The notes under the pieces are model-generated. The model searched no databases. It was not told where the DNA came from and saw only the letters and a program-made list of their open reading frames with translations. A DNA stretch of 64,000 nt, from NCBI GenBank assembly GCA_001661245.1, contig KV454017.1, positions 713,903 through 777,902 of the forward strand. Reading direction: 5' to 3'. This stretch comes from Pachysolen tannophilus NRRL Y-2460 (Eukaryota). The position numbers and the translations under genes are program-made. Below, piece by piece: positions 4,925-60,069 of the stretch (positions are counted from its first letter, which is position 1; every line of letters begins with the position of its first letter).

Positions 4925-5536
4925 ATGTCAGAAGTTGGTATAGAATCTGGACAAGTAGAAATCTTGGCTCCAAAAGAAGTTATATATTGTGGGGTTTGTT
5001 CTTTCCCACCAGAATATTGTGAATTTGGTGGATCATTTAAAAAATGTAAAGAATGGTTACAAAAAAATAATTTAGAATTATTTGAAAAACTTTATTCTGA
5101 TGAAGCATTGGCACATCTGACTTCATCATTATCTATTGAGAAAGAAGAAAAAATATCTCTGGATTTACAGAAAAAACAGAAAAAGGAAGAAGCTAAGCAA
5201 GAAAGAGAAATGCTGAAAGTGCTATCTTCAAAAGTTTTAATAAAAAGAATTGAAAGAACAAAGAGAAAACATGTTATAGCAGTTAGTGGATTAGAAGTTT
5301 TCAATGTTGATATGAAAAAATTAGCAAAAACTTTTGCTTCAAAATTTGCAACTGGTGCTAGTGTAACAAAAAATGCTGAAAAGAAAGAAGAAATAATTAT
5401 TCAAGGTGATGTAGGTGATGCTGTAGAAAAATATTTAACAGGTTTATTACAAGAAAAAGGTTTAACCGATATTAAAGTTGAACAAATTGATGAAAAAATG
5501 AAGAAAAAAAAAGCTGAACCTGTTAAACCTGAATAA
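4925..5536 (+). CDS. TMA22: Translation machinery-associated protein 22 (DENR, SUI1 domain)
   Basis: YCGVCSFPPEYCEF zinc motif and SUI1 domain (KLAKTFASKFATGASV...IIIQGDV). Confidence 0.95.
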   Translation: MSEVGIESGQVEILAPKEVIYCGVCSFPPEYCEFGGSFKKCKEWLQKNNLELFEKLYSDEALAHLTSSLSIEKEEKISLDLQKKQKKEEAKQEREMLKVLSSKVLIKRIERTKRKHVIAVSGLEVFNVDMKKLAKTFASKFATGASVTKNAEKKEEIIIQGDVGDAVEKYLTGLLQEKGLTDIKVEQIDEKMKKKKAEPVKPE

Positions 5537-5663
5537 ATATAAAAAATAGTTTAGTTTTTTTCTTTTTTTTTGGATTTTTCTTTTTTAATATACTTGATGT
5601 GTTTCCATGATAAAAAAGAAAGATTGATACCAATAATTTTTTAAAATTTTTTTCTCTCTTTCT

Positions 5664-5703
5664 ATTATCTCATTATCTCATTATCTCATTATCTCATTAT
5701 CTC
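5664..5703. repeat. Perfect tandem repeat (ATTATCTC)x5
   Basis: Five exact 8-bp copies read directly from the sequence. Confidence 0.9.
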
Positions 5704-6231
5704 GGTTAACATGCCTTTTATAAGAATAAAATGATAAAACTACTTTTAGCTACTTTATAGTTTTACGTTACATTGGTCTAGTAATTCGATACTACATTAC
5801 CAGCCACATTCACATTCACAGTCTAAAAAAATTTCATTTTAATAAAAAGATTGTTCCGCGATTGATTTGATTTGATTTTGATCCATTTTCCGCCGGCTCA
5901 CGATGGCGGAAAATTAATCAAAAATCGAAAAACCAAAAAAAAAAAAAAAAAAAAAAACAAATGCGCAGACCTAGAGTAAAAAGCGATACGCTAAGCGTGC
6001 GCAGTTTATAAACAAACGGTCTTAATGCGTGCGCATATATTTAAACTCTGAGCGTACGCAAATACCTACGCTTTAAATAAATATTTCGCGCAATTGTTTT
6101 TTCTTTCTTTTTTTTTTTTTCCACCGTTTAATCTGAGTGAATGAAAAATTGAGTGAGCATGATAAAATAAATAAATACTTTGAAAATTTGGTGGTAACAT
6201 AACTTAACTAAAGGCATTGTGGTAATCAGTA

Positions 6232-56574: not shown

Positions 56575-56686
56575 ATACAAAATAAATTTAGTTTAGTTTT
56601 TTTTAAAATAAAAAAACAACAAAAACACACAAAAAGAAATGATTTTCATAAAAGGGGTTTCTTTTTTTTTTATTTTATTTTTAAAA

Positions 56687-57493
56687 CTATTCAAAGGCCA
56701 ATTGTTTTTTAATTTCAGCAATTGCTCTACCTGGGTTTAAACCTTTTGGACAAGTTCTTGAACAATTCATGATTGTATGACATCTATATAATGACATACT
56801 ATTTTGTAACATTTCTTTTCTAACTGCAGAAGCTTGATCTCTTGAATCGATTAACCATCTATAAGCTTGCATCAAGACAGCTGGACCTAAATATTGTTGT
56901 TGATTCCACCAATAAGAAGGACATGAAGTTGAACAACAAGCACATAAAATACATTCATATAAACCATCCAATTTTTTTCTATCTTCAATACTTTGTAAAT
57001 TTTCTTTACCATCTTCTGGTACAGAATCTCTTTGTAAATAAGGTTGAATTGATTTATATTGTTGATAAAAATGAGTTAAATCTGGAACTAAATCTCTAAC
57101 AACAAACATATGTGGAAGAGGATAAAGTTTTGTTTCCTTTGTTGTATCTTGATCAATTTTACATAAACAAGCCAAAGTATTTCTTCCACCAATATTCATA
57201 GCACATGAACCACAAATACCTTCACGACATGATCTTCTAAAAGTTAAAGTAGCATCTTGTTCATTTTTAATTTTTAAAATTGCATCTAAAACCATTGGAC
57301 CACATTTATTTAAATCAATTTGATATTCTTGCATCTTAGGTTTAACATCTGGTGTATCTGGATTCCAACGATAAATTTTAAAAGTTTTCAATTTTGGTTG
57401 TGTAGGTACCGGATGACTGGTAGCTAAACCGCGCTTAAAACAATTTTGAAAACTTGGTTTCGATAAAATCGAAACTAACTGTGACTTATACAT
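56687..57493 (-). CDS. SDH2: Succinate dehydrogenase iron-sulfur subunit
   Basis: [49 protein letters not shown]. Confidence 0.97.
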
Positions 57494-58593
57494 GGTGATA
57501 AATATATTTTAAAAAGAATTTAAATTTAAATAATTAATCAATATTTTTTTTAAAATTTCTTCTCTTTTATAAAAAAATAAAATAAAATTAATAAATATAA
57601 AATATAATTAATTAATAATATAAAAATAATAATAATAATAATTATAATAATATTAAATGATTATTCATCTCTTTAACAATTGGATTGTAAATGGAAAGAA
57701 ACCCTTTCACAACAACGCATTCACTTACTCACTTTAACTCACTCACTCACACATTAAACTCAAACACAGAGACAAAAAGGACAAAGTAAAACTGGGAAAG
57801 GGCATAAAATTGTTTAAGTTTAAAAAAAAAAATTAACCATTTATGCGTAATTTTTATAGATTATAATTGTATTATAGTAGTAGTATTAATTACTTCTAAG
57901 TAAATTTATTAAAGGATCATGCCCTTTCTATTAAAGTTCGGCTTTCGGGGCATGATCATTTATCATTTATCGCATCCGATTCAATTTTTTGTCGTAATCA
58001 AGAAAAATGTAATTGGATGAAGTTAATTTGGTAAAAGCCGGAGAAAAATTAAAAAAAAAAATTTTTTTTTATTTTGTTATTTGGTATTTGATATTTATGC
58101 GTTGGCTGGGGTCACACTACAATCAATCGGTTTAAATTGGAGAGGTACACTACTTGACCAACGGAAGAAAATTGGTAAAACTAAAATTTTTTTTTTATTT
58201 TACTTTTTTGGTTCCGATTTTTTACGATAGAAATTCAAACAAAAATAACACCTCAAAAGAGAAGCAAAGAAAAAAAAAAAAGGAAAATTGTAGGTCGTGG
58301 ATGTATGACTCAAGAATTGTAAAACTTCCATTTTGGTTTTATGGGGGTTTCAGTACACGTCTTTTCTTTAGAGAATTTTGTAAATTCTCAAAGTAGTGTA
58401 GCGCTAACTCAAGTCGCCTAATTAGGAAAACAAATTTTTCAAATTTTTTATTTATTTCGTCGTGTGAATTGGATCAAACAAAATTTACAAAATTTATTAC
58501 CAATTTTTATTCTCTTAATTAATTTAACGTATATATATATATATATTTATATATATATTTATATATTAATTAAATTGACTATCAATCGGTATA

Positions 58594-60069
58594 ATGTCCG
58601 ATATATCAGATGAAGATGAAGCGTTTCTCTATGGGTCCGATACTGAAAAGATCAATTCTGTAGAGGCAAATGCGAAAACGATTACCGCTGTAGACGATAA
58701 GAAGAAGCTGGATGATGTGGATGAAGGTGATGATGGCGTTTATGCTGATGGATCTGAAAGTGAATATGAATCATCTGATGATGATATTGAGATTGTGGTG
58801 GACTCGAATGATAAGAAGACAGGTTTGGGTTTGGCAAGAGCAAGTGGTACCTCTACTACCACAGCTGCTTCTGACGAAGCAGCTGTTTCAGGAGTGGTGC
58901 TGTCAGCTAAAGATGGTCAACACTCGCTGCAACAACAACAACAACTGCACCAACAACAGCTGCAACTGCAACAGTTACCTTCAATTGACATTGACCAAAT
59001 ACCAGAGTACCAGGGTAAACCGCTAACTCAGTTGGATATTGAGAAATTACAAAATAAACCATGGAGATTACCTGGTGCAGATATTACAGATTATTTTAAT
59101 TTTGGCTTTAATGAAGTAACTTGGATTTATTATTGTACAAAACAAGATGATAAAAGACAAAAATATAACCCTCAGAAACTTTTGATGGATTTAATGACTG
59201 CTAATAATAACAATAATGGAATGGGTAACTCTTCCAATGATGGCCAACAACTTCCTCATCCTCCTCAACCTCCTACAATGATGAACCCAATGGCATTCCC
59301 GCCAATGATGGGCCCAGGAATGATGGGGATGCCAGGTATGCCACCACCACCAATGGGTATGCCTTTTGGTAATGGCTTCAATCCCGCTTTCAACATGAAT
59401 AATAACATGATGCGTAATAATATGGGGCCTAATATGGGCGCTAATATGGGAGCTAATATGGGATCCGGTATGGGATCCAGTATGGGCCCTAATAATGGAG
59501 GCAACAACGGTGCAGGTTCTGGTGCCAGTGGCGGAGTCAATGGTAATAGCGGCATGAACATGAATAACATGAACAATTCTAATAATTATAATGAAAAACC
59601 TTTAGTACCGAACTTGAATTTGCCAAAAATTCCAAATGCAAGATTACCTCAAATACCTGGTCAACAACAGCAGCAGCAACAACAACAACAACAACAACAA
59701 AGGAGACAAACACCTGTAAATCAGCAATCGGATCAAAGATCTTTGACTCCTCAATTACAACACCCTCAACCACAACAGGCAAAAGATGGTGCATCTTTAC
59801 CTTCAGTCCCTCCTCCTCCTCCTCCACCGCCACCTCCTTTGGAAGGTAATGATGATAGTGGTAATTCTTCAAACGATCCCCTGAAATTTCCTCAAGGCCC
59901 AAAAGTTTACCTGGATAAAGAGATAGAAAGAGAAAGAAGAGATAGGCAGAAGGAAAGAGGTGGTACTGCAACTCCTACTACTAATAACGGCAATTATCGT
60001 GAAAGAGAAGAACCCTCTAATTCTTCTAAAACTACAAATAAAAGAAACTATAAAGGAAAACGTCGCTAG
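58594..60069 (+). CDS. FIP1: Pre-mRNA polyadenylation factor
   Basis: Acidic N-terminus and Fip1 motif KPWRLPGADITDYFNFGFNEVTW, followed by low-complexity P/M/N/Q tracts. Confidence 0.92.
   Translation: MSDISDEDEAFLYGSDTEKINSVEANAKTITAVDDKKKLDDVDEGDDGVYADGSESEYESSDDDIEIVVDSNDKKTGLGLARASGTSTTTAASDEAAVSGVVLSAKDGQHSLQQQQQLHQQQLQLQQLPSIDIDQIPEYQGKPLTQLDIEKLQNKPWRLPGADITDYFNFGFNEVTWIYYCTKQDDKRQKYNPQKLLMDLMTANNNNNGMGNSSNDGQQLPHPPQPPTMMNPMAFPPMMGPGMMGMPGMPPPPMGMPFGNGFNPAFNMNNNMMRNNMGPNMGANMGANMGSGMGSSMGPNNGGNNGAGSGASGGVNGNSGMNMNNMNNSNNYNEKPLVPNLNLPKIPNARLPQIPGQQQQQQQQQQQQQRRQTPVNQQSDQRSLTPQLQHPQPQQAKDGASLPSVPPPPPPPPPPLEGNDDSGNSSNDPLKFPQGPKVYLDKEIERERRDRQKERGGTATPTTNNGNYREREEPSNSSKTTNKRNYKGKRR

Follow-up and report, generated by a model that had tools for sequence, protein, structure and literature searches.

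What does the codon CTG encode in the 64,000-nucleotide stretch of contig KV454017.1 analysed here (hereafter the window, numbered from its first letter)? The question was raised by an earlier note, which had proposed from the letters alone that CUG is read as alanine rather than leucine. Twenty-six open reading frames (ORFs) that begin with ATG and span at least 150 amino acids lie on the two strands of the window; CTG occurs 66 times among their 13,273 codons, and 19 of the 26 carry at least one. Extending the BUD4 frame as far as the window reaches raises the count to 68 in 13,456 codons, and the first exon of ERG9 gives two more. ORFs free of CTG include the conserved ATP-synthase alpha/beta-family, SDH2-like, proteasome, GTR1 and pyrroline-5-carboxylate (P5C) reductase genes.

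We conclude that the window very probably derives from a CUG-Ala yeast of the order Alaninales, most likely Pachysolen tannophilus or a very close relative, and that each in-frame CTG encodes alanine (translation table 26). This is the best-supported reading, as the earlier note had held, although its main support comes from elsewhere than the motif arguments offered there. Four lines decide for alanine: the public records of the window's own genes, which have Ala at all 28 of the CTG sites compared; a tree of ABCG transporters; the match of codon usage and CTG profile to P. tannophilus; and published mass spectrometry and tRNA data. The phenomenon is already known and already present in public annotation as table 26. 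That the code is not new had been recognized earlier: it is an established NCBI translation table and is diagnostic of the order Alaninales, comprising Pachysolen, Nakazawaea and Peterozyma (Groenewald et al. 2023, PMC11182611). The value of the observation is thus practical rather than conceptual.

The case against leucine comes from four genes of the window:

11094-13691, forward strand: JmjN/PHD/JmjC demethylase (JHD2-like), assigned by Pfam, with four CTG codons
28876-32964, reverse strand: full-size ABCG transporter (YOL075C-like), assigned by Pfam, with seven CTG codons, each in a variable column
33257-35947, reverse strand: UTP14 (Pfam Utp14, E=1.4e-198), with CTG at residues 3, 35, 110, 297, 379 and 483
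60391-63999, reverse strand: BUD4 reading frame, with homologues named BUD4, 11 CTG codons, open to the window end

Homologue sets comprised 119 sequences each for UTP14, ABCG and BUD4 and 149 for the JHD2-like demethylase. Alignments for the tallies were anchored on the window proteins with phmmer, and UTP14 column counts were taken from a MAFFT alignment. A column was called conserved when one residue occurred in at least 60% of at least 40 homologues. The four families contain 179 conserved-Leu columns, at 156 of which the window keeps leucine. CTG is used at none of these 156, against 10.5 expected from its share of 6.7% of the Leu codons in these genes (P=1.9e-5).

A self-calibrated likelihood gives the same answer; it measures the residue profile opposite each CTG against the average profile that each real amino acid shows in those alignments. 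Sites with at least 20 aligned homologues were usable, which holds for 16 of the 28 CTG sites in the four families (one of 11 in BUD4, two of four in the JHD2-like gene); five further sites read from PDB alignments make up a 21-site set. Leucine lies 15.4-15.6 nats under the best residue with 15-16 sites and 15.95 nats under it with 21, and alanine is preferred over leucine in 99.8% of bootstraps. For calibration, sets of 16 real Ala, Ser or Leu sites were named rightly in 1000 of 1000 draws each, and at a stricter cut of 15 sites Leu sets were named rightly in 999 of 1000. The mean Leu frequency opposite CTG is 0.04, compared with 0.58 opposite the other five Leu codons, and none of 5000 samples of real codons reached so low a value. 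The reading of CTG as leucine is therefore firmly rejected. About 40 of the roughly 70 CTG sites stand outside this comparison, in genes that include those for the MSC1-like protein, FIP1, ERG9 exon 1, a GT34 protein, a sugar transporter, a second ABCB transporter and three ORFs without clear families.

Individual sites in the remaining CTG-bearing genes can be examined one at a time. These features are as follows:

1727-3970, reverse strand: ATM1 orthologue (chain 7psl_A matched at E=5e-146), CTG codons at residues 91, 135 and 309
4925-5536, forward strand: TMA22/DENR (Pfam DENR_N and SUI1), with CTG at residues 65, 79 and 97
25590-27608, reverse strand: divergent importin-alpha-like protein, with CTG at residues 105, 417 and 530
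39368-39370, reverse strand: in-frame CTG at codon 294 of HMG-CoA synthase (ERG13), in IG[CTG]FSYGSG
41623-41625, reverse strand: in-frame CTG at codon 506 of an Ish1-repeat (MSC1-like) protein (Pfam Ish1), in AKDAA[CTG]DYGSKA
46801-46860, reverse strand: ERG9 exon 1, which has 20 codons and precedes an intron; its CTG codons are number 4 (46851-46849) and number 12 (46827-46825)
51940-52527, reverse strand: TAF13, with CTG at residue 41
58927-58968, forward strand: Gln-rich tract of FIP1, with CTG at 58927, 58945, 58960 and 58966

Every CTG codon cited in the earlier note proved to be in frame, namely those at 5117, 5159 and 5213 in TMA22, at 34501, 34813 and 35059 in UTP14, at 39370 in HMG-CoA synthase and at 41625 in the MSC1-like gene, the four in FIP1, and codon 4 of ERG9 within its 20-codon first exon. 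The claim that alanine restores the motifs of UTP14 fared unevenly. It stands at residue 483 (34499-34501, reverse strand), the clearest Ala column, where 90 of 119 homologues have Ala and 17 have Lys, and where the S. cerevisiae chain 6ke6_RQ has Ala. It stands in part at residue 379 (34811-34813, reverse strand), with Ala in 70, Ser in 39 and Leu in four of 119 and Ser in S. cerevisiae; these two sites are the clear Ala columns among those that hold a CTG. At residue 297 (35057-35059, reverse strand) it fails, because 118 of 119 homologues have Pro, the sole Leu belonging to the closest relative of the window protein (P0002). UTP14-3 and UTP14-110 fall in Lys/Arg columns, and BUD4-1076, in the extended frame, is the only BUD4 CTG in an alignable column, which is one of Pro/Glu.

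Other sites are equally diverse. ABCG-1339 lies in a hydrophobic column of L, V, F and I. ATM1-135 is opposite Lys in three distant orthologues (7psl_A, 7pr1_A and 23pi_A), which at ATM1-309 have L, A and G, respectively. Residues 105, 417 and 530 of the importin-like protein are matched by M/I, A/S and I/I in chains 1wa5_B and 4rxh_B, and TAF13-41 by Q in 6hqa_J and D in 30ff_Dm. ERG13-294 had been put forward as a site that does not support alanine; solved homologues have V (2p8u_A), A (2wya_A), M (2f82_A), M (7cqt_A) and L (5hwq_A) at this position, which is thus not contrary to alanine. The FIP1 glutamine tract, which had been offered as evidence for alanine, is not diagnostic, since CTG is one base away from the Gln codon CAG. 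The three TMA22 sites occupy the linker ahead of the SUI1 domain, which is unalignable with human DENR, and the six PDB matches to TMA22 comprise human DENR and eIF1 chains only, with no yeast Tma22 chain among them.

The sites in hydrophobic columns are the best argument for the standard code, under which CTG would be a rare leucine codon of an AT-rich genome whose odd placement arose by chance. ABCG-1339, ATM1-309 (Leu in S. cerevisiae) and the importin-like sites 105 and 530 would suit such a reading, a CTG frequency of 0.5% of codons is unremarkable at the G+C content of the window, and leucine stands opposite 15% of scorable CTG codons in the published P. tannophilus table. Nonetheless, we regard the standard code as extremely unlikely. 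The conserved-Leu columns without CTG, a likelihood 15-16 nats worse than that of alanine, the scarcity of Leu opposite CTG, a flank hydropathy outside the range of Leu sites (see below), and public records of these genes that contain no Leu at CTG already refute it at the level that the data allow.

Which residue has replaced leucine is a separate matter, and here much of what the window itself offers weighs against alanine. Of the sites described above, UTP14-297, ABCG-1339, ATM1-135 and importin-like 105 and 530 belong on this side of the balance, and to them are added the statistics that follow and the limits given below with the trees, the public records and the codon usage. In the 21-site likelihood, serine lies only 0.75 and threonine 0.99 nats behind alanine, so that the window alone does not single out alanine; across site sets the distances are 0.01-0.75 nats for serine and 0.84-1.5 nats for threonine. 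Alanine is the top residue in 2314 of 5000 bootstraps of the 21 sites and is preferred over serine in 64%. The mean Ala frequency opposite CTG is 0.15, compared with 0.48 at GCN codons, and none of 5000 samples of real Ala sites is that low. CTG is depleted at conserved-Ala columns (one versus 7.5 expected, P=0.003), and about as strongly as at conserved-Ser columns. The conserved columns (at least 60%) that do hold a CTG are one of Ala, two of Pro and one of Lys.

Context tests that use no orthologues point the same way. Over 68 CTG sites the mean flank hydropathy is -1.06, compared with -0.22 for Ala, -0.47 for Ser and -0.47 for Leu sites, and falls outside the 95% range of all three. A classifier based on neighbour composition scores alanine at -42.7 over these 68 sites, under serine at -20.9 and leucine at -23.9. 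In addition, ARAGORN finds no tRNA gene in the 64-kb window. The CTG sites are thus typical of no residue, are scarce at every kind of conserved column, and sit in variable, hydrophilic segments, and their statistics count against the claim that alanine visibly restores motifs across the window. The tally of orthologous residues opposite CTG, suggested earlier as a check on the code, accordingly rejects leucine but leaves alanine tied with serine and threonine. A 64-kb window alone cannot fix the residue of a reassigned sense codon that sits mostly at unconserved positions.

These results leave room for a code in which CUG is read as serine, either of the Ser1 type (Candida, Debaryomyces) or of the Ser2 type (Ascoidea, Saccharomycopsis), or as another small polar residue such as threonine. 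Besides the narrow likelihood differences, serine or threonine is top in 1614 of the 5000 bootstraps, and the hydrophilic context of CTG suits serine better than alanine. However, the mean Ser frequency opposite CTG is 0.09, compared with 0.42 at real Ser codons, and is likewise lower than in any of 5000 samples. CTG occurs at none of the 85 conserved-Ser columns at the 60% level, against 5.0 expected (P=0.006), and at none of 60 at 70% or more, a test of low power. The phylogeny and the public records bear further on this alternative, which we consider very unlikely.

In the ABCG tree, seven Pichiales species share a clade (Shimodaira-Hasegawa-like approximate likelihood ratio test, SH-aLRT, 99) with the window protein and its closest relative, which fall within it, and two CUG-Ser2 species form a separate clade with support of 97. 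Forcing the window protein together with the Ser2 species is 53 log-likelihood units worse (approximately unbiased, AU, test p=0.0005) in a test with 15 rows under LG+G4 for which the group was defined once the tree was known. None of the 120 ABCG matches is a Ser1 sequence. In the UTP14 tree, the window protein and its closest relative stand outside the 11-species core of the Ser1 clade (SH-aLRT 100), with the deep nodes open: joining the window protein to the Ser1 clade gives an AU p of 0.61 and joining it to three Pichiales species a p of 0.80, so that neither placement is rejected. The nearest named UTP14 homologues are Ser1 species, at 52-53% identity, which with the AU value of 0.61 is what phylogeny contributes in favour of serine; its separation from both the core Ser1 clade and Ser2 contributes to the opposite side. 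Some genera in these trees carry clade labels (Ser1, Ser2, Pichiales) that we assigned ourselves. The ABCG placement beside Pichiaceae agrees with the published position of the Ala clade as a deep branch next to that family (Krassowski et al. 2018).

Public protein records of the window genes have alanine at each of the 28 CTG sites, six of six in UTP14 (P0001), seven of seven in ABCG (P0121), 11 of 11 in BUD4 (P0241) and four of four in the JHD2-like protein (P0361). The source record was therefore translated with table 26, although the Ala in these copies is an annotation choice and not a measurement. The BUD4 record is 1456 residues long, placing about 250 N-terminal residues beyond the window, and only the C-terminal third of the protein is conserved among homologues.

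The choice between alanine and serine is also informed by the closest relative, represented by P0002, P0122 and P0242 from Logan assemblies. These proteins, translated by the standard code, are 57-61% identical to those of the window (61% on ABCG). They have Leu opposite Ala encoded by GCN in the window at 11 of 145 positions, compared with five of 278 opposite window Ser (p=0.005 versus Ala) and 15 of 537 in four control species (p=0.013). At ABCG column 968 the closest relative has Leu, and 105 of the 118 other homologues have Ala. Such an excess of Leu opposite Ala, and not opposite Ser, is the signature of CTG codons for alanine misread as leucine in a sister lineage. The closest relative is therefore probably another CUG-Ala yeast filed under standard-code translation, and it may be a Nakazawaea or Peterozyma species.

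Certain other homologues from Logan assemblies (P0084, P0093, P0181, P0368 and P0377, among others) provide what would be a positive control. They carry Leu at two to four conserved-Ser columns and at no conserved-Ala column, and they look like CUG-Ser yeasts under standard-code translation. The window never has CTG in the conserved-Ser columns where these homologues show Leu, which argues against serine.

The comparison with P. tannophilus itself draws on two published studies. Codon usage in the window correlates with the 'All codons' column for this species at r=0.989 over 24 codons (Krassowski 2018 Supplementary Data 2). The window has an ATT/ATC ratio of 5.8 and P. tannophilus one of 4.3, with N. 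peltata and N. wickerhamii at 1.1, and the corresponding CTG/CTT ratios are 0.50, 0.48 and 1.0; with these two Nakazawaea species as the only controls, the match is supportive rather than unique. In the genome-wide CTG row of the same study, 554 sites among 20,511 codons (2.7%) are scorable, with weights of 167.5 for Ala (30%), 87.3 for Leu (15%), 53.1 for Pro (10%), 40.1 for Gln (7%), 30.6 for Lys (6%) and 23.8 for Ser (4%). The window shares this profile, weak in Ala and rich in Pro, Lys and Gln, together with the small number of scorable sites. Since so few CTG codons are scorable even genome-wide, 64 kb is unable to settle the residue. The fraction of ORFs with CTG, 19 of 26, likewise resembles the 80% of genes published for P. 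tannophilus (PMC4937558). In these comparisons we found no difference between P. tannophilus and the window.

Direct measurements exist for this species. By liquid chromatography-tandem mass spectrometry (LC-MS/MS), alanine was found at 97.2% of the 907 CUG positions with full support (Muhlhausen et al. 2016, PMC4937558). De novo peptide data place 158 of 160 CTG sites in one non-Leu column, with 0% under 'Universal' and 98% under 'Largest' (Krassowski 2018 Supplementary Data 3). That column is alanine by the column order of the file and the text of the paper, and it holds 99 of 103 sites in N. wickerhamii and 359 of 372 in P. xylosa (Krassowski 2018). The tRNA(CAG) of P. tannophilus has A73 and G3:U70 and is without an extended variable loop (PMC4937558). 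The G3:U70 pair alone is not decisive, because it is also carried by some tRNA-Leu(CAG) of Phaffomycetaceae and Saccharomycetaceae (PMC4937558). Codon usage that matches a species in which CUG is alanine by mass spectrometry, taken with the alanine in the window's own records, is a further argument against serine.

Other members of the order fit less closely. Nakazawaea and Peterozyma use the same code (96% Ala in de novo peptides) and belong to the same order as Pachysolen. However, CTG stands opposite conserved Ala in 67% of cases in N. peltata, 60% in N. wickerhamii and 49% in Peterozyma xylosa, compared with 30% in P. tannophilus, and the ATT/ATC and CTG/CTT ratios of the two Nakazawaea species are unlike those of the window.

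The CUG-Ser codes (table 12; Serinales, 'Ser1', and Ascoideales, 'Ser2') resemble the window in that the same codon has left leucine, CTG is rare, and conserved Leu is avoided. They also resemble it in a low share for the largest residue at scorable sites, Ser reaching 28-48% in the Ser1 rows and 25% in S. malanga, the one Ser2 row in which Ser leads (Krassowski 2018). They differ in the points already given, namely that window CTG avoids conserved Ser, that the lineage falls outside core Ser1 and apart from Ser2, and that the public copies have Ala.

A further alternative is ambiguous decoding, in which CUG would be read as alanine plus leucine or another residue, or in a manner dependent on site or condition, as Ascoidea asiatica reads it stochastically as serine and leucine. 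The window shares with A. asiatica the reassignment of CUG in a budding yeast, and its CTG sites are typical of no single residue, with a minority in hydrophobic columns that would suit leucine. [quoted passage not shown] Conversely, the two proteomic data sets for P. tannophilus described above show essentially one residue, the standard meaning accounting for 0% of the de novo sites. Peptides from the Ala clade have one residue at 96-98% of sites, and the window carries no sign of two competing tRNAs, both of which differ from A. asiatica. Young codons at positions under weak constraint offer a simpler account of where CTG occurs, odd as its placement is, and sequence in itself is unable to show ambiguity. 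We give ambiguous decoding a small chance of being correct.

A milder form would be non-uniform decoding with some leucine, constant or conditional, at ABCG-1339, importin-like 105 and 530, ATM1-309, ERG13-294 and ERG9 codon 4. The chance of this is slight, because published proteomics of the likely species shows a single residue at 96-98% of sites, and a low-level dual code is unlikely on that account.

Uniform decoding as alanine, the reading that we favour, has a mechanism in the literature. The ancestral tRNA-Leu(CAG) would have been lost, and an alanine-type tRNA with anticodon CAG would now read CUG; the proteomic study describes CUG as read by an anticodon-mutated tRNA-Ala following loss of the Leu decoder (PMC4937558). 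The CTG codons now present would be young, having entered genes after the reassignment, mostly at weakly constrained positions and largely through single-base changes. Young codons at tolerant positions would account for the scarcity of CTG opposite conserved Ala. They would also fit the published row, where the residues ranking high opposite CTG include Pro, Gln, Leu, Val and Met, and the occurrence in the window of CTG opposite conserved Pro twice and in a Gln tract four times, where CAG becomes CTG by one base.

For users of these sequences, the consequence is immediate. That an ORF track made with table 1 or 11 has a wrong Leu at each CTG, as noted earlier, follows from CUG encoding alanine; such a track misplaces Leu at about 0.5% of residues and in 19 of the 26 ORFs here, and table 26 should be used instead. 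The same mistranslation can be seen in public proteins, as Leu opposite conserved Ala in the closest relative and as Leu at conserved Ser in other yeast homologues.

The window is AT-rich (G+C 0.23-0.33) and densely packed with genes, and its content, judged from Pfam and PDB matches, is typical of a budding yeast. Together with the genes listed above, these matches identify those for pyrroline-5-carboxylate reductase, a GT34 glycosyltransferase, an ATP-synthase alpha/beta-family protein, a sugar transporter, a proteasome subunit, GTR1, squalene synthase (ERG9), a second ABCB half-transporter, a cytochrome-b5-fused desaturase, a V-SNARE and an SDH2-like iron-sulfur protein. PDB searches with the desaturase N-terminus and with the V-SNARE gave no match.

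Contigs from runs X1 and X5 match positions 28876-35319 and 35404-35947 with no differences, so the CTG codons there are not sequencing errors, although this agreement is not independent because one of these runs (X5) may be the source of the window DNA. Contigs of X1, X5 and X6 contribute identical sequence only and nothing from a relative, the share of X6 being two short identical pieces. An apparent joint in X1 and X5 from 34096 to 34407, which skips 310 bases within UTP14, is most likely a repeat artefact, because only 21 letters support it beside the skipped repeats in an acidic region. Between the V-SNARE and SDH2-like genes, 279 N occupy 56037-56315, and a single N stands at 14063; these represent a gap in the assembly or else sequence that has been masked.

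In five genes, a short first exon and a 5' intron seem to be present. In ERG9 (46680-46860), the first exon is followed by an intron with a GTAAGT donor and a TAG acceptor. The other apparent 5' intron regions lie at 40250-40600, 36944-37250, 44000-44212 and 14700-15509, and the genes concerned are those for HMG-CoA synthase, the proteasome subunit, GTR1 and the ATP-synthase alpha/beta-family protein. Among the upstream exons of the five genes, only that of ERG9 contains CTG. The upstream exon of the ATP-synthase alpha/beta-family gene reads like part of an F1 beta subunit, which this gene may encode. Finally, the importin-alpha-like protein, at 672 amino acids, scores 221 bits against S. cerevisiae Srp1 and has several insertions, which is unusual for a well-conserved family, and it may be a paralogue of importin alpha.

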